In this document: piece after piece, positions 586 to 7,007 of the stretch
Numbering within the stretch: the first letter of the stretch is position 1
Layout of the letters: each line of letters opens with the position of its first letter
DNA from: a virus
UHGV virus genome: UHGV-0180765
Direction: 5' to 3' (one strand)
DNA length: 14,508 nucleotides
Notes under the pieces: generated by a model
The model's database searches: none
What the model saw: the letters and a program-made list of their open reading frames with translations, nothing else
What the model was told of the DNA's origin: nothing
Made by a program: the position numbers and the translations under genes

Positions 586-2105
586 TGCACTGGCACCTTC
601 AGAGGGATCACCGGCACAAAGCCGGGATGCGTAATGGCATTACGCCGGATAATGTCCGCGTCACGCGCCGCGTTATCAAACCAGGTCGCCGCCAGCACCA
701 GCGCGGGTAAAACCTCATCCGGTGTGCGCTGAATGATCCGTGCAGACTGTTCAAGGCGCGTGTTGATATCCGCATTCAGATCTGCTTTCACCCGGCGCAG
801 CGCCAGAAACAGCGCATCGCTGGTTGTACGGGACAACTCCTTATCAATTGCCGTATTCAGTGTGTCGCGAATGTCAGTCAGTTCTTCCCACGTCGGCAGG
901 TCAACCGTGTTTTTCACCGCCGGTGCATTGTTCAGTGCCGGATGCGTGACGGAAGGCCAGCCAGTGCTCTGCGCGGGTGTTGTTGCCTGCCCCACTGCGG
1001 AATTCTGCATCACCGCGGAAGTTGTTGGCGCAGGCAATCGGGTGACGGCATACGCCGCTTCGCTGATTGCGGTCGTACGAAGGGTGCTGGCAACCACGTT
1101 ACGCTGCTGCGTCGCCGTGGCGGTGGTTTTACTGTCCGTTTTCCAGACGCCGCGCGGTTGCAGATCGCTGCCGAGGCTGACACCGGAAAGCGTTTTGATC
1201 ATGGTGACCAGGTCGCTGGCGTTACCATAAAGGCGTTTCCCGGTACGCCACATTTTCTGCACCTGCTCAACGAAATTTTTGCCTGACGATGGCGGCGGCA
1301 GAAGTACCGAGATATCCCCCTGCAACAGCCTGGCGGCATCCGATACGGCAGAATCCACCACTTTCATCGCATCAGAAACATACCCAAGCATTGTGCTGGC
1401 ATTACCGATAACGTCGTTCTGCACGAAATCCGCCACACCATCGATACTGAAACCGCTGAAGCTGTCACTGATGCGGTCATCCAGTGCAGAACAGGATGAC
1501 ATCAGCGTCTGCGCCGTCGCCGCACCTGATGTGGGGTAAGAGAGTTCTCCTGCTTCGACAAACTTCAGGTCAAAGCGGACAATACGCCCTTCACTTTTCG
1601 ATGTGCTGACCCGAACTTCCCCGTCAACACAGACTTTCAGCTCACCATATGTCGGGTGGACAAGCGTGCCGGGACCGGGTTTATTCAGCGCTTCAATCAG
1701 GCGATCGCGCTGGTCAAAGCAGTCATCTCCCACCACATAAGCTGTGATGGACGGGCGGAAAGTGACTTTTCCCAGATCTTCGGTATGGCGTAACGACTGG
1801 ATAGTGGTGATATCACCGGTTACGACATCAACCAGGTCTTTGGTTTCATAACCGAGATATGTGTGTTTGAGAGCATCTTTTACCCAAGCTGGAGTGGCGA
1901 ACGTTTTACCCCTGCTGATGAGGTATTCACTGATTTCGCTGTACCACATGTGGCTGAGTGCATTCTGGGAAAGACTGCGTCTCTCGCGCCACGGTTTAAG
2001 CACCATGCGAAAGCATTTGCCGTCCTCCAGATAAGGCTGGATCTGCCGACCGATAGCGGTGAAGTTACCGCGATGCAATTTGATACCATCTTGTGGGAGG
2101 TTCAC
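582..2105 (-). CDS. putative Mu gp N-like DNA circulation / tail assembly protein
   Basis: 507-aa ORF with GTG start at 2105 preceded by GGAGGTG (RBS); Ser/Thr/Ala-rich central region; translationally coupled to the downstream 185-aa ORF. Size and gene order resemble the Mu N-P pair found in Mu-like tail modules of SfV-type phages. Family call is from memory and synteny only. Confidence 0.4.
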
Positions 2106-2380
2106 GCTTCACCTCCGCAGAGGTCAAACGTTGGATGCAAGATATCGCAGGTGCATTTCTGCATCTGTGACTGGTTGAAAGGTGTTCTGATTGTCGTTTG
2201 CACTTTGAGTCCCCTCAAAGCGCAGAAGTCACCGGAGTTGTTCAGGCTCCGATGACATGATTATGGCGAGTTGATTATGATGAATCAATAGGTTCTTATG
2301 TCAAATGGACACTAGATCCAAAGGAGGGTAACAATTATCATAGCCAATGAGATTAATCTCATTTTTAATAAGGAAATTTC

Positions 2381-3799
2381 ATGAAATATTTCTCAACTGG
2401 TTTTTATGTTTCAAACTCCACATCTCTAGCTGAGATCTTTAATGAATGTTTTTCTTGGGTAAACGACTCACCACATACAACTTTTATTCCAGCACAATTA
2501 GTATGTGATTATAAAAGCGAGGAGTACTTCATAGAGTCTAAAAATGAAAGAATTGATATAATAACTTATAAAAACAAAGATACTAGTTTAGGCTGTTTTA
2601 GGTATTCGAAAATATCTGAGCCACACAAATGGGTAACAGATATTTCAATTAATAAAAATCTCAAAACTGATACCATGTGGATTCAGGTGGAATCTAGCGT
2701 TGTAAGCCAAGATGCAGCTTATCTAGCCCCGCAACCTAAGAAACCATTAGTTGTTATGAGATTGATTGATAAATTTCCTGGTGGTCTTGATGATATTTTC
2801 AAGGTGTCAGTCGAACCTCATTCCTTAGATGATACTGATGAACATTTAAATATAGCAGCTAAAGTTATAAATGGTGAAACTGACAACAGACTACCAATAA
2901 TATACGTTAGCTCCAAGTATTTTTTTAATGAACATGCTCACAATATCATCCCAGAACGCCTTGCAAGAAAGGTATGCGGATTAGCACATGTATTAATTGA
3001 GCCTAGCAATAGACTATTTTCTATTAAGCTAAAAAATGAGACAAATGCTAAAAATGCCTATGCTGGTGCTGTTGGTATCTATTGGCCACGGGGTCAAAAT
3101 ATCAGTTTTTATCGCCGTGGTGAGAAAACCGCAAAAGAATTTGAAGATGAGTTATTTGATGATGTTGTAAGAGCTACGACTACAATGGCTCCTGTCTCAG
3201 ATAGTGGATGGAGTGAGATACAAACCAGAAAAACGAAAGACTCTATTAACTCACTCAAAGAAAGAGGAGAATACACACGCGAACTGATGGCGCTTTACGA
3301 AGCCGATAATGTTGCGAAAGATGACCAAATAGAAGATCTTAAGCATAAGATCTCCTCTTTAGAGCACAGAGTACGCACTCTTCAATCACAAGCTTCAGCC
3401 CAAGGAAGCATTGCGCTTAATGCTGGTGAAGAGACTGACTTTTTTGATGGAGAAATCAAAAATATAATTATTGACGCACTAAAAACTGCCATAAAAAATA
3501 AAAATGAATTTGGTAGAAGCTACCATATCTTATCATCCCTAATTGCCAATAATGAATACAATAAAGAAACCGAGAGTCGCCGCCAATTACTTAAAAGGAC
3601 TTTAACAGGTTACAGAAGCATGGATAGCGCAACACAAAGAAATTTAAAGGACTTAGGTTTCAGTGCGTCAAGCGATGGAAAACACTGGAAGTTAACATAT
3701 AATGAAGACCCTCGATATTCCTATATTTTACCTAAAACAGGAAGTGACCACAGAGGTTCTTTAAATGCTATCTCGGATATAGCAAATATTATTTTCTAA
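2381..3799 (+). CDS. hypothetical protein, low-GC orphan gene (function unknown; candidate accessory/defence cargo)
   Basis: 472-aa ORF with AAGGAAA RBS 4-5 nt before ATG 2381. Strongly AT-rich relative to the flanking lambda-like genes (by eye, not computed). Opposite strand to both flanking operons. Predicted coiled-coil segment in the middle (LKHKISSLEHRVRTLQSQ). No family recognised. Confidence 0.7.
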   Translation: MKYFSTGFYVSNSTSLAEIFNECFSWVNDSPHTTFIPAQLVCDYKSEEYFIESKNERIDIITYKNKDTSLGCFRYSKISEPHKWVTDISINKNLKTDTMWIQVESSVVSQDAAYLAPQPKKPLVVMRLIDKFPGGLDDIFKVSVEPHSLDDTDEHLNIAAKVINGETDNRLPIIYVSSKYFFNEHAHNIIPERLARKVCGLAHVLIEPSNRLFSIKLKNETNAKNAYAGAVGIYWPRGQNISFYRRGEKTAKEFEDELFDDVVRATTTMAPVSDSGWSEIQTRKTKDSINSLKERGEYTRELMALYEADNVAKDDQIEDLKHKISSLEHRVRTLQSQASAQGSIALNAGEETDFFDGEIKNIIIDALKTAIKNKNEFGRSYHILSSLIANNEYNKETESRRQLLKRTLTGYRSMDSATQRNLKDLGFSASSDGKHWKLTYNEDPRYSYILPKTGSDHRGSLNAISDIANIIF

Positions 3800-3806
3800 T
3801 AAATTT

Positions 3807-3834
3807 CAATAGCACTCACAAATGAGTGCTATTG
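3807..3834. terminator. strong hairpin between convergent genes (putative bidirectional terminator)
   Basis: Inverted repeat caatagcactca / tgagtgctattg with 4-nt loop (caaa), 12 nt after the stop of the 472-aa ORF and 17 nt from the stop of the convergent 84-aa ORF. T-tracts on both sides are weak. Confidence 0.5.
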
Positions 3835-3850
3835 TTGCCACTGAATTATT

Positions 3851-4105
3851 CTATTTAAATTCAACTTTTATCCCTTTGTTTAGCAGGGCATCAGAAACTG
3901 CCTTTTTTGTAACATTTATCCCTGCAAGCAATGCTTTATGCATTGGTCCCTTAAAAATCTCTACTTCTTCTTCAGTGAGTTTAGGCAATGTAATATAAAT
4001 AACATCTTTCATCTGCTTGTTTTTATAGCATGAGCTTCTTGTGTGCTTACAATCGATATTTTCTTTATTTCCCAAAACATCATCCCCTTTATAATTCAGT
4101 TCCAC
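3851..4105 (-). CDS. hypothetical small protein (AT-rich), doubtful
   Basis: 84-aa ORF from GTG 4105 with no obvious RBS; an internal ATG at 4012 (53-aa product) has only a weak RBS. It lies in the low-GC island directly downstream of ren in the pR-direction transcript. Coding status uncertain. Confidence 0.3.
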   Translation of the reverse strand: MELNYKGDDVLGNKENIDCKHTRSSCYKNKQMKDVIYITLPKLTEEEVEIFKGPMHKALLAGINVTKKAVSDALLNKGIKVEFK

Positions 4106-4169
4106 ACATCAATTATTTAGTTATCACGAATGTCGTAAAACTAAAATTAGTAACAATAATTGCTCATAC

Positions 4170-4457
4170 CTACCCTCTTCCATATAAAGCCAACACCCGC
4201 TTCATCGCGGCACTTTGACGACACTCCTTAAAAATCAGATTCGTGCTCACCTTTCCTTCCCGTTCTTCTCTGGTAGCGAACCGGTAATACACCGTTCGCC
4301 AGACCTTACCATCAACGACCAGGATTCCTGCCCGCGCCATTTTAGCCGCAGCCTGATTTATGCTGGTTACGGTTGCGCCTGTTACCGCGGCAACGTCCTG
4401 CGCACAGAAGTTCTTATGAGTCCCCAGGTAATGAATAATTGCCTCTTTGCCCGTCAT
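4170..4457 (-). CDS. ren: Ren protein (lambda Ren family)
   Basis: 95-aa product MTGKEAIIHYLGTHKNFCAQDVAAVTGATVTSINQAAAKMARAG... matches lambda Ren as I recall it over essentially its full length. Its start overlaps the P stop (ATGA), as in lambda. Confidence 0.85.
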   Translation of the reverse strand: MTGKEAIIHYLGTHKNFCAQDVAAVTGATVTSINQAAAKMARAGILVVDGKVWRTVYYRFATREEREGKVSTNLIFKECRQSAAMKRVLALYGRG

Positions 4458-5155
4458 ACACTTGCTCCTTTCAGCCCAAACTTCGCTTTGATTTCTGCGA
4501 TCTTCGCCAGAGACTGAACACGATTAAGCGGTCTCCCGCCCATAACAGGAAGTTGTTTTACTGGTTCCGGTATCGCCTCACCACGGTTAATTCGCGCTGT
4601 CATACAGGCCAGTTCATCGGCAGCCTTGCGCCGTAATTCCGCATCAGTCAGCGCATTGGCCCGCATGTTCTGATACAGGTTGGTAACCAGCCAGTAGTGC
4701 GCGTTTGATTTCCACGGATAAGACTCTGCATCCGGATACAGGCCACGTTTCCGGCAATACTCGTAAACCATATCAACCAGCTCGCTGGCGTTTGGCAGCC
4801 CGGCGGTAACGGATGCTTCTTCCCGGCACCAGGCAACAAACTGCCCGGGTGATGGCAGGAATGGTCGATTCTGCCGACGGGCTACGCGCATTCCTGCGTT
4901 AACCTGTTCCATCGTGGTGATCCCGTTTTCCCGGAAAGCCAGAACCCACTGGCGGCGGATTTCGTTCAGTTCGTTCTGGTCCCGGTTAGCCAGGCTCGCC
5001 GGGAAAGTTGCCAGTAACTGGCTGAACACACCATTGATGATCTGCGCTACCTGTTGTACCTGCGGCTTTTCGTCGTACTGTTCCGGCATGTTGTTGGCGA
5101 TCCGGCGCATCTGCTCACGGTCAAAGTTAACCATCTGTGCGGCGATGTTTTTCAT
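4454..5155 (-). CDS. P: replication protein P (DnaB helicase loader)
   Basis: 233-aa product MKNIAAQMVNFDREQMRRIANNMPEQYDEKPQVQQVAQIINGVF... matches lambda P as recalled, at the same length. Its start overlaps the O stop (ATGA). Confidence 0.9.
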   Translation of the reverse strand: MKNIAAQMVNFDREQMRRIANNMPEQYDEKPQVQQVAQIINGVFSQLLATFPASLANRDQNELNEIRRQWVLAFRENGITTMEQVNAGMRVARRQNRPFLPSPGQFVAWCREEASVTAGLPNASELVDMVYEYCRKRGLYPDAESYPWKSNAHYWLVTNLYQNMRANALTDAELRRKAADELACMTARINRGEAIPEPVKQLPVMGGRPLNRVQSLAKIAEIKAKFGLKGASV

Positions 5156-6081
5156 AAATCCACCCCGTAAATCCAGTCAGTGTTTGTCAGGTCGAGTTTT
5201 GATTTTCCGGCTGTCACGCCAGCCTGTTGCTTGTTACGGTTGATTTCGAGTTGGGTCCACTTGTCGCGGAGTTTGGCCGGACTTAGCACGTTACCGGACC
5301 AGAAGTTGTCCTGGCATGCCCAGCGGAACAGCACGCACATGTCGCGGTGGTTACGGCCGTCACGTTCACGCATCAGGCGGATATCGTTAGCCCACCCTGC
5401 AAAATTCGGTTTTCTGGCTGATGGCGCGATGGTCTTCACCATGTCAAACATCCACTCTGCGGCGGTCAGGTCTTCTGCTGTCCCCCACTTGCTGCCACTC
5501 TGAATTGCAGCATCCGGTTTAACCACAGGAAGATCGTCTTCTGGTTGGTCAGAGGATTCGCCAGAATTCTCGGACGAAAAAGGTTTTATATTGTCTTTTG
5601 TTAGTTTGTCTTTTGTGTTTACCTGATTCGGGTAAACGCCTTTACCTGATTTGGGTAAACTTTTCTTACCTGATTCAGGTAAATTTACCTCTTTCAGGTA
5701 AACTTTATTTTTCTTACCTGATTCGGGTAATGTTGACCATTCACTGACCACATTATTAATGCCTATATTCCGCCCGCTCTGAATAAAAATCCCACGCTTT
5801 ACCAGAGCACTTTTTGCAGCAGAACACTTGTGCGGCAATATCCCGGTCAACTCGGAAAGTTGCTCGTTGCTCACCCAATCCAGTTTTTTATTAAAGCCAT
5901 ATGTTTTGCGCATGACAGCCAGGAAGACCAGAAGCTGGTGCTGTGTTAATCCGGCCAGCATTACAGCTTCCAGCAACTCATTTGCAATGCGCGTATAACC
6001 ATCATCGAGATCTGCCACGCGCGGCTCCTTTTGTGCCGCATCCGGCACAGGAAAATTGAATATCTCAGCAGTGTTTGCCAT
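5152..6081 (-). CDS. O: replication initiator O (hybrid: non-lambda N-terminal iteron-binding domain, lambda-like C-terminal P-interaction domain)
   Basis: Start placed at ATG 6079-6081, preceded by GGAGG plus 4 nt; the N-terminus MANTAEIFNF... parallels lambda O MTNTAKILNF.... The C-terminal half (SSENSGESSDQPEDDL...WIYGVDL) matches lambda O as recalled. The ori iterons lie inside the gene. The ORF track's longer start at 6171 is less likely. Confidence 0.85.
   Translation of the reverse strand: MANTAEIFNFPVPDAAQKEPRVADLDDGYTRIANELLEAVMLAGLTQHQLLVFLAVMRKTYGFNKKLDWVSNEQLSELTGILPHKCSAAKSALVKRGIFIQSGRNIGINNVVSEWSTLPESGKKNKVYLKEVNLPESGKKSLPKSGKGVYPNQVNTKDKLTKDNIKPFSSENSGESSDQPEDDLPVVKPDAAIQSGSKWGTAEDLTAAEWMFDMVKTIAPSARKPNFAGWANDIRLMRERDGRNHRDMCVLFRWACQDNFWSGNVLSPAKLRDKWTQLEINRNKQQAGVTAGKSKLDLTNTDWIYGVDL
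5618..5732. repeat. replication origin iterons (five ~19-bp direct repeats) with adjacent T-rich tract
   Basis: Five copies of TTACCTGATTCGGGTAA-like repeats starting near 5618, 5641, 5666, 5685 and 5714, each internally palindromic (TTACC...GGTAA). They are followed at 5591-5617 by a duplicated ttgtcttttg T-rich tract. Located inside the O linker region, as lambda ori is. Confidence 0.75.
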
Positions 6082-6167
6082 AATTCCTCCCGCAATGAGT
6101 GTGTTACGATTTGCACCTGAAAGTCGGTTCTGTTCCCGCAGACCGACTTTCGCCATTTTTGAACCTG

Positions 6168-6707
6168 TCATATTGCCCCCAACATGGTGGTAACCATCGC
6201 CATCAATGGACCAGCCAGATCCGGGTCCACACGAAACATCGACACAATACCTTCACTCATCTCCTTCAGTTTCTGGTGGCGTGGTGCGTTGAGAATGACA
6301 GCCTGTTTTGCCTCACTGAGTTCCTTTTCCATTTCAGCCAACCGAGTCATGAAGCTATCCTGCTCAACCAGGTAACCGCGATATTCCAGCGGTAGTACCG
6401 CCAGAATTGCCGGGGTCAGTTCACGCACGTTATTTCGGTATTTTTCAGAATCGAATTTGTTATCGAGGAAGCGGAACAGCTTCTGGCGTGCACGGCTGAC
6501 ATCATCAGGGAAATCGATGGTGCCGCCGCCCTGCTCCCGATACTCATTCACAATGAGTGCGGCAACAACATCCTGATTATCTGCAGCCGACCAGGCGCGG
6601 ACGGCATCACGGATTTTTTCGTGGCCTGGCACCTGTTTTGTTTGAGAACGATTTATCACCGCAGTCGGGCTAAATCCGCTAGTCTGTTGGTATGTAAGTG
6701 GTTGCAT
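6168..6707 (-). CDS. YdaT-like protein (CII-position regulator)
   Basis: 179-aa ORF with AAGGAG RBS 6 nt before ATG 6707. Lies between the cro-like gene and O, where cII sits in lambda. Motifs EYREQGGG and TPAILAVLPLEYR resemble the Rac prophage YdaT family as I recall it. Family call is from memory. Confidence 0.5.
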   Translation of the reverse strand: MQPLTYQQTSGFSPTAVINRSQTKQVPGHEKIRDAVRAWSAADNQDVVAALIVNEYREQGGGTIDFPDDVSRARQKLFRFLDNKFDSEKYRNNVRELTPAILAVLPLEYRGYLVEQDSFMTRLAEMEKELSEAKQAVILNAPRHQKLKEMSEGIVSMFRVDPDLAGPLMAMVTTMLGAI

Positions 6708-6776: not shown

Positions 6777-7007
6777 TTAAGCTGCGTTCTTTTCGGTGTG
6801 TGGAAACAACTTCGGAAGATCCGGGCGAATCTGGTATGCCTTCACTACTCCACCAGTAGCCGTAACAATGCTGCCGACATGTTCAGGGGATACCTTTGCT
6901 TTGTTGTGAAGCCACTTATAGACGGCCTGCTGTGAAACTTCGCAGGCAGCGCCCAGTTTCTTTTGTGAACCAACGATATTGATCGCTGTTTTGATAGCTG
7001 GGTTCAT
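6777..7007 (-). CDS. Cro/YdaS-family helix-turn-helix regulator
   Basis: 76-aa ORF with GGAGG RBS 5 nt before ATG 7007; an HTH-like segment (GSQKKLGAACEVSQQAVYKW); divergent from the CI-like repressor gene across an operator region. Confidence 0.6.
   Translation of the reverse strand: MNPAIKTAINIVGSQKKLGAACEVSQQAVYKWLHNKAKVSPEHVGSIVTATGGVVKAYQIRPDLPKLFPHTEKNAA

Follow-up and report, generated by a model that had tools for sequence, protein, structure and literature searches.

Repeats upstream of a HEC-07-like candidate defence gene in a defective lambdoid prophage appear to mark a junction of phage backbone and imported cargo

The intergenic DNA upstream of a 472-aa gene in a defective lambdoid (DLP12/phage-82-like) E. 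coli prophage holds three repeats, which an earlier note on this DNA had grouped into one controlled promoter of that gene. Our analyses of the surrounding sequence (the window, viz. the whole stretch of 14,508 nt that was analysed) indicate that these repeats belong to two different units. The left unit (2256-2288) is the end of a conserved lambdoid linker lying before ylcH(orf33)-ybcN(ninB), and it carries a minus-strand promoter-like element of the sigma-70 type that points away from the 472-aa gene. The right unit (from about 2289) is imported DNA, to all appearances a "moron"-type cassette, inserted antisense in the ren-ninB slot and consisting of a predicted promoter, a leader, the 472-aa gene and a probable terminator hairpin. 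For the palindrome that lies in this leader, we favour, at roughly even confidence, a reading in which the gene has its own promoter and the palindrome works chiefly at the RNA level, folding into a hairpin in the leader with which the transcript begins. The main value of these results is for annotation, as what had been supposed to be the promoter region of an orphan gene is the junction of the phage backbone and an imported cargo; the grouping of the three repeats into a single promoter is thereby corrected, in a manner that would not surprise a specialist. The features on which the following account is based are summarized in Table 1.

Table 1. Coordinates of genes, repeats and predicted signals in the window.
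Feature	Position	Strand	Characteristics
ylcH/orf33 remnant	2102-2203	-	
ybcN/ninB, start	2105	-	
Backbone inverted repeat GTCACCGGAG-N9-CTCCGaTGAC	2228-2256	-	arms 2228-2237 and 2247-2256; just downstream of the leftward -10; abuts the start of the region described in the earlier note and lies outside it
Promoter-like ATGACA-18-TATGAT	2252-2281	+	best plus-strand consensus match (10/12); spans the backbone/cargo junction
TGATTATG, first copy	2258-2265		
Putative -10 ATTATG (CATAAT on the minus strand) of ylcH(orf33)-ybcN(ninB)	2260-2265	-	"minus_10_signal, putative" in X92588; inside the first TGATTATG copy
Inverted repeat TTGATT-N6-AATCAA	2271-2288		arms 2271-2276 and 2283-2288, 6 nt between them; at the backbone/cargo boundary; also in L002, L004 copy A and phage 82, all without the 472-aa gene there
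TGATTATG, second copy	2272-2279		in the spacer of the leftward promoter-like element; overlaps the TTGATT arm
Putative -35 AATCAA (TTGATT on the minus strand)	2283-2288	-	17 nt from the -10; "minus_35_signal, putative" in X92588
Alternative register TGGACA-18-AACAAT	2306-2335	+	consensus match
Candidate cargo promoter TAGATC-17-TATCAT	2313-2341	+	prediction; predicted start at or a few nt before the palindrome
Perfect 18-bp palindrome AATGAGATT/AATCTCATT	2346-2363	+	arms 2346-2354 and 2355-2363 (9+9 nt, 100% complementary, spacer 0); as RNA, a 7-bp stem with a 4-nt loop; ends 6 nt before the Shine-Dalgarno; dG -5.0 kcal/mol, z -4.2
Palindrome core GAGATTAATCTC, 12 bp	2349-2360		
Shine-Dalgarno AAGGA of the 472-aa gene	2370-2374	+	read directly; kept in orthologues
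472-aa gene, HEC-07-like candidate single-gene anti-phage defence	2381-3799	+	AT-rich cargo antisense to the early-right operon; PADLOC match
Hairpin with 12-bp stem, -18.9 kcal/mol	3807-3834		8 nt past the stop codon; terminator-like in the scan
84-aa ORF	3851-4105	-	
ren	4170-4457	-	
P	4454-5155	-	
O	5152-6171	-	
ydaT	6168-6707	-	
cro-like gene	6777-7007	-	

The early-right operon of the prophage, which comprises a cro-like gene, O, P, ren and finally ylcH/ybcN, is encoded on the minus strand, and the 472-aa ORF on the plus strand. Everything to the left of this ORF is likewise on the minus strand, with no plus-strand gene among it, and therefore the 472-aa gene cannot be read through from the phage operon. 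The view of the earlier note that the gene has a promoter of its own is in agreement with this arrangement, and also with the observation that about 90-100 nt of the DNA ahead of the gene accompany it when it moves among unrelated mobile elements. These features indicate that the gene must have its own promoter, and the sites that it might use are given below as predictions. The ylcH of the window starts with GTG, and it is termed a pseudogene in a 100%-identical record from E. coli JS01.

The extent of the imported DNA is evident both from base composition and from comparisons with related loci. The GC content falls from 0.52 to 0.32 at about position 2250 and rises again near 4200 (0.31-0.42 inside, about 0.52 in the flanks). 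In a prophage that lacks the 472-aa gene (L002), homology to the window stops at 2279 and restarts at 4191, with different small ORFs found between ren and ylcH, and the backbone "linker" of another lambdoid prophage (L057; window positions 2126-2273) is 90% identical to that of the window. Approached from the cargo side, nucleotide homology with the orthologue of a P2-like phage begins at 2280 and that with orthologues in other elements at 2296-2346. By these alignments the border of backbone and cargo is placed at 2280-2289, within the TTGATT/AATCAA inverted repeat, and the AT-rich cargo, antisense in the ren-ninB slot, extends from about 2280/2289 to about 3840. Carriers of the gene in the ren-ninB setting make up 24 of 5426 complete E. 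coli genomes, and the flanking backbone is found in about 3700. No target-site duplication or transposon ends were seen at the borders of the cassette. Locus L004 holds the segment 2135-2278 twice, flanking two extra genes, and because of these two copies the segment behaves as a module-boundary linker and the borders look like the product of module exchange at a conserved linker.

The 472-aa protein is a candidate for anti-phage defence, since it resembles HEC-07 (PADLOC-DB PDLC04161), a single-gene system whose architecture is reported to combine AdoMetDC-like, thioredoxin-like and RelE-like domains and a representative of which lowered plaquing in E. coli (Payne et al., bioRxiv 10.1101/2024.01.29.577857). 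The resemblance is based on a PADLOC HMM match (E = 1e-9, 35.9 bits) that is partial, residues 83-340 being aligned with positions 107-372 of a 553-position profile, and the protein itself has 472 aa. Besides this match, nothing firm was found for the protein in Pfam, NCBIfam, a PDB profile search or Foldseek, and neither Pfam nor NCBIfam has a family for it. In the AlphaFold (AF2) model (pLDDT 81), a beta-rich domain at the N-terminus is followed by an alpha/beta domain that is thioredoxin/PDI-like, a coiled coil, and a small C-terminal alpha-beta-beta-beta-alpha domain which contains the invariant H435. As modelled, the beta-rich N-terminus, the thioredoxin/PDI-like middle and a C-terminal domain with an invariant histidine would be points of likeness to HEC-07, as is the occurrence of both as single genes in cargo sites of the defence type. 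Foldseek matches are weak (PDI/thioredoxin-like and SRPBCC-like, none at E <= 0.001), and at the sequence level the C-terminal domain is only faintly RNase-like (HicA_toxin in 2 of 15 members, E = 0.03).

The family to which the protein belongs is small and comprises 74 clusters at 90% identity, all of about 470 aa. Its members are found in the same antisense ren/P-ninB slot of other lambdoid prophages (L055 from Edwardsiella and L057 from Scandinavium), next to the integrase in P4-like satellites (L047-L054), between gpA and the portal gene of a P2-like phage (L067), within a P2-like tail cluster (L066), on an ICE (L058) and on 5.9-kb plasmids of Klebsiella; a tblastn search of 50,697 deposited phage records (INPHARED) revealed the gene in none of them. 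This distribution of relatives is that expected of defence cargo, and by it the lambdoid ren-ninB slot joins the P2 and P4-satellite hotspots as a cargo site of the 472-aa family.

The start of the cassette and the junction before it contain several promoter-like sequences, all of which are consensus matches of 8-10/12. The best of them on the plus strand, ATGACA-18-TATGAT, loses its -10 when other cargos are present and the whole site is missing from the orthologues in other elements; it is a junction hybrid found only in this context. The candidate TAGATC-17-TATCAT lies within the cargo itself, and four loci (the window, L055, L007 and L067) share ACTAGAT and TAT(C/T)AT with an equal distance between them. 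Its predicted start is at about -5 to +2 relative to the first base of the palindrome stem. At the other end, the hairpin that follows the 472-aa gene is likely the 3' end or terminator of the cassette, and most orthologues have a strong, non-homologous hairpin 6-12 nt past the stop codon. The promoter candidate and the hairpins past the stop codons lead us to define the unit as a cassette of promoter, leader, ORF and terminator. The minimal mobile unit of this HEC-07-like gene would accordingly consist of the ORF, the terminator hairpin and some 90 nt ahead of the ORF that hold promoter and leader, a definition which helps the cloning of the gene under its native control.

The morons of lambdoid phages such as HK97 and HK022 are reportedly autonomous insertions of promoter, gene and terminator with a deviant base composition. 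The right unit is similar to these in that it sits between ren and ylcH/ninB, which are closer together in relatives, in that its GC content is 32-36% against 52%, and in that its own promoter-like region precedes the gene and a strong hairpin follows the stop codon. It differs from them in being antisense to the early-right operon and in the occurrence of the same cassette in P2-like phages, P4-like satellites, an ICE and small plasmids, and its expression from the prophage is putative. On this comparison the right unit appears to be a new instance of a familiar kind, viz. a moron-type cassette with its own promoter and leader hairpin.

All three of the repeats described in the earlier note were found where it had placed them, both by direct reading of the sequence and with a repeat finder. 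The Shine-Dalgarno sequence and the ATG at 2381 also agree with that description. The palindrome ahead of them had been described as 12 bp in length; it is present and perfect, but this size was too small, as the repeat finder extends the dyad to 18 bp, which makes it the longest perfect palindrome of the 14.5-kb window. Chance estimates were obtained by dinucleotide-preserving shuffles in which arms of at least 9 nt were scored. Such arms arose in 22 of 300 shuffles of the whole window, in 9 of 1000 of the AT-rich island and in 0 of 1000 of the intergenic DNA (2106-2380). The 8-nt direct repeat (P of about 0.04-0.09 by shuffle) is unremarkable when taken alone because the window has 17 such repeats, or about 1.2 per kb. 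For the 6-N6-6 inverted repeat, P is 0.33 in the single sequence, and comparison still shows its conservation over six lambdoid backbones.

In related loci the palindrome takes the form AATGAGA-N4-TCTYATT, of which there is one copy per locus, invariably a short distance upstream of the 472-aa ORF. The arms AATGAGA/TCTYATT are retained in six orthologous lineages and enclose 4 nt that vary (Table 2), and the element ends 5-7 nt before the Shine-Dalgarno in every lineage that bears it. The bearing loci constitute one clade of at least about 70% protein identity. In a nested clade of P4 satellites (L005, L006, L047) the element is missing and the upstream region has been replaced; L055 has a decayed version; and no such element was found in the outgroups L057, L058, L179 and L180 or in two extra orthologues (P0011 and P0015). 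The element is considered dispensable because of its absence from the P4-satellite clade and from the distant relatives and its decay in L055.

Table 2. Arms and centre of the palindrome element in the loci that bear it.
Locus	5' arm	Centre	3' arm
Window, L003	AATGAGA	TTAA	TCTCATT
L007	AATGAGA	AAAC	TCTCATT
L067	AATGGGA	ATAA	TCTCATT
L060	AATGAGA	ATAT	TCTTATA
L008, L107	AATGAGA	ATAG	TCTTATT
L059	TATAGGA	AACA	TCTTATT

The pattern of substitutions within the element provides information regarding the molecule in which it might act. In the alignment, 89% of the cells are paired, against 37-73% when the partners are slid, and three pairs of the stem show changes on both sides; the set from which this covariation is derived consists of 9-11 related sequences with about 4-5 independent events, and 17-20 of 500 shuffles reach the observed values. 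In the well-aligned hairpin lineages, all of the one-sided changes in the arms produce G.U pairs (A->G in the 5' arm, twice, and C->U in the 3' arm), and a G->A change in L059 turns a G.U pair into A-U. The internal arm changes of the well-aligned lineages thus preserve pairing on the sense RNA only. RNAalifold predicts the palindrome as the sole helix of the consensus, with stem energies of -5 to -8 kcal/mol across the orthologues; the 41-nt leader as a whole folds no better than its shuffles (z -0.97), and a search of the region 2000-4300 against Rfam found no family at E <= 1.

We prefer a role of the palindrome in the transcript because the wobble pattern is strand-specific and because the distance to the Shine-Dalgarno is fixed (5-7 nt) while that to the -10-like hexamers varies. 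According to this reading, transcription of the 472-aa gene would begin at or just before the palindrome, from a sigma-70 promoter of its own that is weak to moderate in strength and most probably TAGATC-17-TATCAT. The palindrome would then form a stem-loop of 7-9 bp with which the mRNA begins, 5-7 nt ahead of the Shine-Dalgarno, and by shielding the short AU-rich leader from 5'-end-dependent decay this hairpin would set a steady, low level of expression of a potentially toxic defence protein of the RNase type.

Stabilising stem-loops at the 5' termini of bacterial mRNAs, for example the hairpin in the ompA 5' UTR, block 5'-end-dependent decay by RNase E/RppH. The palindrome is similar to these in that its stem-loop is predicted to lie a few nt from the 5' end of the transcript and just upstream of the ribosome-binding site, and in that its structure is maintained by wobble and compensatory changes. 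It differs in that its stem is short and AU-rich, that its arm sequence is more conserved than the structure demands, and that the transcript start is a predicted one. Several other observations run counter to the hairpin reading, viz. that a start at 2348-2349 would leave part of the 5' arm untranscribed, that the stem is weak (-5 kcal/mol), and that the support from covariation is modest. The conserved leader element offers a small system, open to clean tests, in which to study how a prophage expresses a defence gene that may be toxic.

The main alternative, which we regard as less likely, is that the palindrome is a DNA operator, across which a dimeric repressor encoded by the host or elsewhere would bind AATGAGA-N4-TCTCATT at the start of transcription and so restrain the defence gene. 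In favour of this, all 18 bp of the dyad are symmetric in the window, and strong conservation is confined to the arms, the 4-nt centre and the two flanks being variable; in L003, for instance, the bases adjoining both ends differ from those of the window and the 18 bp are identical. A repressor bound there would sit at a classic position, the predicted -10 hexamers either overlapping the palindrome or ending 5-12 nt ahead of it. The spacing of the element, however, is tied to the Shine-Dalgarno and not to these hexamers, and the C->T change in the 3' arm (four loci of two lineages) and the A->G change in the 5' arm (two loci) degrade the symmetry of the half-sites while RNA pairing is kept. 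The arm changes accord with an RNA hairpin no less well than with an operator. A phage-specific repressor is made unlikely by the occurrence of the cassette in lambdoid, P2-like and other elements of several genera, no regulator gene accompanies the cassette in any of the contexts compared, and the consensus sites of CRP, FNR, ArgR, Fur, LexA and Lrp misfit in spacing or sequence.

The earlier note had also proposed that the regulator be identified by a search for further copies of the palindrome. No second copy was found in the window with up to 3 mismatches allowed, and none elsewhere in the 178 loci compared. A scan of IMG/VR for the palindrome together with the Shine-Dalgarno gave 51 matches, about 13 of which are this cassette and the rest about 13 unrelated sequence types, so that the matches outside the family are roughly at the level of chance by a rough estimate. 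A regulon was rejected on this basis.

It is also unlikely that the palindrome is without a dedicated role, whether as a remnant that was inherited, as a weak insulator or terminator that blocks read-in, or as a part of a leaderless or upstream mini-ORF. Consistent with such a view, it has been lost or replaced in several lineages that keep the gene, and yet in the others it is kept over about 25-30% of protein divergence with the adjacent non-coding bases scrambled. The weak hairpin is followed by a tail of 5 U and has a faint look of a terminator; an intrinsic terminator or attenuator was rejected here, as the palindrome is not called by the scan, its stem is weak and the run of U lacks conservation. 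Similarly, the ATG at 2347 begins a frame of 28 codons, but this mini-ORF ranges from 6 to 28 codons among the loci, is conserved in neither length nor sequence, and has no ATG in L059.

The arm AATGAGA is far better conserved than a purely structural stem would need, an observation that points to sequence-specific recognition. A more speculative and decidedly unlikely proposal is that AATGAGA-N4-TCTYATT is a dedicated cis-regulatory switch, read sequence-specifically as DNA or RNA by a conserved enterobacterial factor or by the RNase-type domain of the HEC-07-like protein itself, which would keep expression within safe limits until infection and then release it; the antisense placement by the nin element could also couple expression inversely to the early transcription of the prophage.

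Several known sites were compared with the repeats on the basis of their consensus sequences and were rejected. The Fur box GATAATGATAATCATTATC agrees with 2273-2291 at 10 of 19 positions without an indel, the FNR consensus (TTGAT-N4-ATCAA) has the wrong spacing, the window having N8, and CRP (TGTGA-N6-TCACA) and the ARG box (TGAAT-N4-ATTCA) each match at 3/5 per half-site, the latter as a single box. Sites for IHF, Lrp and LexA do not fit. The binding site of HusR (YnfL) is between ybcO and rusA, not at this locus.

The two left repeats, in contrast to the palindrome, are part of the phage backbone. An alignment of the junction in six contexts (viz. the window, L002, L004 copy A, L057, phage 82, and phi80) shows that ATTATG (2260-2265) and ATCAA (2284-2288) are invariant, with a constant minus-strand arrangement of TTGAT(T/A), 17 nt and CATAAT; beyond these hexamers, the rightward cargo of the other five is unrelated. 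The promoter scan likewise reports TTGATT-17-CATAAT on the minus strand. In the GenBank record of phage 82 (X92588), AATCAA and ATTATG are annotated as the putative -35 and -10 of a leftward promoter for orf33/ninB (orf33-orf151-rus-Q), and the adjacent inverted repeat, which corresponds to 2228-2256 of the window, is labelled a "possible regulator-binding site". Across the six lambdoid backbones, 94% of the cells of TTGATT-N6-AATCAA are paired, the phi80 version TTGATA-N6-TATCAA representing one compensatory change with both sides altered. The second copy of TGATTATG is not conserved (phage 82 has TGATTTCC, phi80 TGATAGTG and L057 TGGCAAAA) and appears to be incidental.

The direct repeat and TTGATT/AATCAA had been taken in the earlier note for regulator-binding sites of the 472-aa gene. 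They are present where that gene is absent (L002, L004 copy A, phage 82, and phi80), they coincide with the putative leftward signals of X92588, and the motifs of the left unit are absent from the 472-aa orthologues outside lambdoid phages (P2-like, P4-like, ICE and others). Because of this conservation in the backbone without the gene and this absence from non-lambdoid orthologues, the left repeats are placed outside the gene's own control region; they would serve, or at least belong to, the nin genes of the phage on the other strand, for which the promoter is putative. That all three repeats are regulator-binding sites of one controlled promoter of the 472-aa gene is therefore highly improbable and already largely refuted by comparison: they do lie no more than 125 nt upstream of the ATG, and ATGACA-18-TATGAT overlaps both copies of TGATTATG, but two of them reside in backbone that is conserved without the gene, match the annotated signals of an opposite-strand promoter and are missing from the other settings of the orthologues, and one TGATTATG copy varies even among lambdoid phages.

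For the left unit, a putative annotation thus already exists in the record of phage 82 (X92588; Mahdi, Sharples, Mandal and Lloyd 1996, J Mol Biol 257:561). The two phages share the -35 TTGATT, the -10 CATAAT, the 17-nt length of the spacer, the downstream inverted repeat and, following it, the orf33 ribosome-binding site, and their sequences are 83% identical over a 171-nt alignment. They differ past the -35, where the DNA of the window is the imported 472-aa cassette and not phage 82 sequence, and in the downstream inverted repeat, which in the window has one mismatch (9/10 pairs formed); in the phi80 version of this repeat the stem is compensatorily substituted and the loop is conserved.

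The conserved lambdoid segment that lies beside the 472-aa gene contains two inverted repeats whose stems differ among related phages and whose loops are retained. The first of these is a hairpin with the Shine-Dalgarno sequence of orf33/ylcH (GGGGA, 2214 to 2210) in its loop, and this loop is unchanged across the window, phage 82, and phi80 despite the differing stems (viz. CTTTGAG/CTCAAAG, TAAACG/CGTTTA, and ATTTAAG/CTTAAAT, respectively). These stem differences are compensatory changes in an RNA or DNA structure of the phage backbone. The second is annotated in the phage 82 record X92588 as a "possible regulator-binding site", and its phi80 version has the same loop within another stem (TCTGCCAG/CTGGCAGA), with changes on both sides at three pairs. 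The coordinates of these and other features are summarized in the Table below.

Table. Additional features of the window and their characteristics.
Feature	Position	Strand	Characteristics
507-aa mechanical ORF	582-2105	minus	Junction at 1782-1786
Hairpin with orf33/ylcH Shine-Dalgarno in loop	2192-2231	minus	Repeat finding; comparison with phage 82 and phi80
10-bp inverted repeat	2228-2256		Conserved 9-nt loop TTGTTCAGG; just downstream of leftward -10
Second promoter-like site, TTGACA-16-CATCAT	2299-2304 and 2277-2282	minus	10/12 consensus match
17-nt direct repeat, TCAATAGGTTCTTATGT / TCAACTGGTTTTTATGT	2285-2301 and 2393-2409		82% identity
C-terminal domain of 472-aa protein (residues 411-472)	3611-3796		Match to phrog_2053, E = 9e-8
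84-aa ORF	3851-4105	minus (phage-operon strand)	Convergent with 472-aa gene

Two other elements near the cargo border are probably due to chance. The second promoter-like site combines a perfect -35 within the cargo with a -10 within the backbone spacer, and it is probably fortuitous because this -35 is not conserved in the P2-like phage L067. The 17-nt direct repeat, one copy of which lies in the upstream region while the other forms codons 5-10 of the 472-aa gene, is likewise probably a chance two-copy match. The layout of the palindrome-bearing orthologue locus L007 (viz. a -10-like hexamer, a 4-nt gap, a hairpin, and a Shine-Dalgarno sequence, in this order) was also found in an unrelated group of phages (L183, L192, L194, L202, L210, L213, L216, L225, and L228; IMG/VR contigs of 14-240 kb), which carry TATTAT-ATAC-AATGAGA-AATC-TCTTATT-N-AAAGGAGG upstream of a gene for a Q-rich protein (~319 aa in the contigs with a complete ORF). 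Given that ~13 non-family sequence types were recovered, this shared layout may be a coincidence.

In the compared locus L004, the backbone linker corresponding to 2135-2278 of the window is present in two copies (1483-1978 and 3770-3913), which flank two extra genes, encoding a hypothetical protein and a P22AR C-terminal-domain protein, inserted with ybcN on one side and the 472-aa cassette on the other. This arrangement has the appearance of modules shuffled through recombination at the repeated linker. The 507-aa ORF of the window is a chimera, in which residues 1 to ~108 are from ybcN/NinB and the remainder from a Mu-like DNA-circulation/baseplate-hub protein; the lambdoid DNA match runs from 1782 rightwards and the Mu-like tail DNA match extends up to 1786. 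This junction did not occur in any of the 5426 complete E. coli genomes searched, and therefore either the Q, lysis, and head region has been lost from the prophage or the source was mis-assembled. The ybcN gene of the lambdoid prophage L003 has a different truncation from that in the window and is fused to a tail-fibre pseudogene.

The 84-aa ORF had no match in family searches. ORFs of similar size and position occur near the 472-aa gene in the lambdoid prophages L003, L055, and L057, and such companions are not present beside the gene in P2-like or P4-like settings. The phage protein family matched by the C-terminal domain of the 472-aa protein is of unknown function, and the invariant residues of this domain are H435, D443, R445, Y446, K452, S455, D456, R458, G459, and N462. 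Its G-K-H-W-K-L motif resembles the G-S-N-H-L-K-L motif of E. coli HicA.
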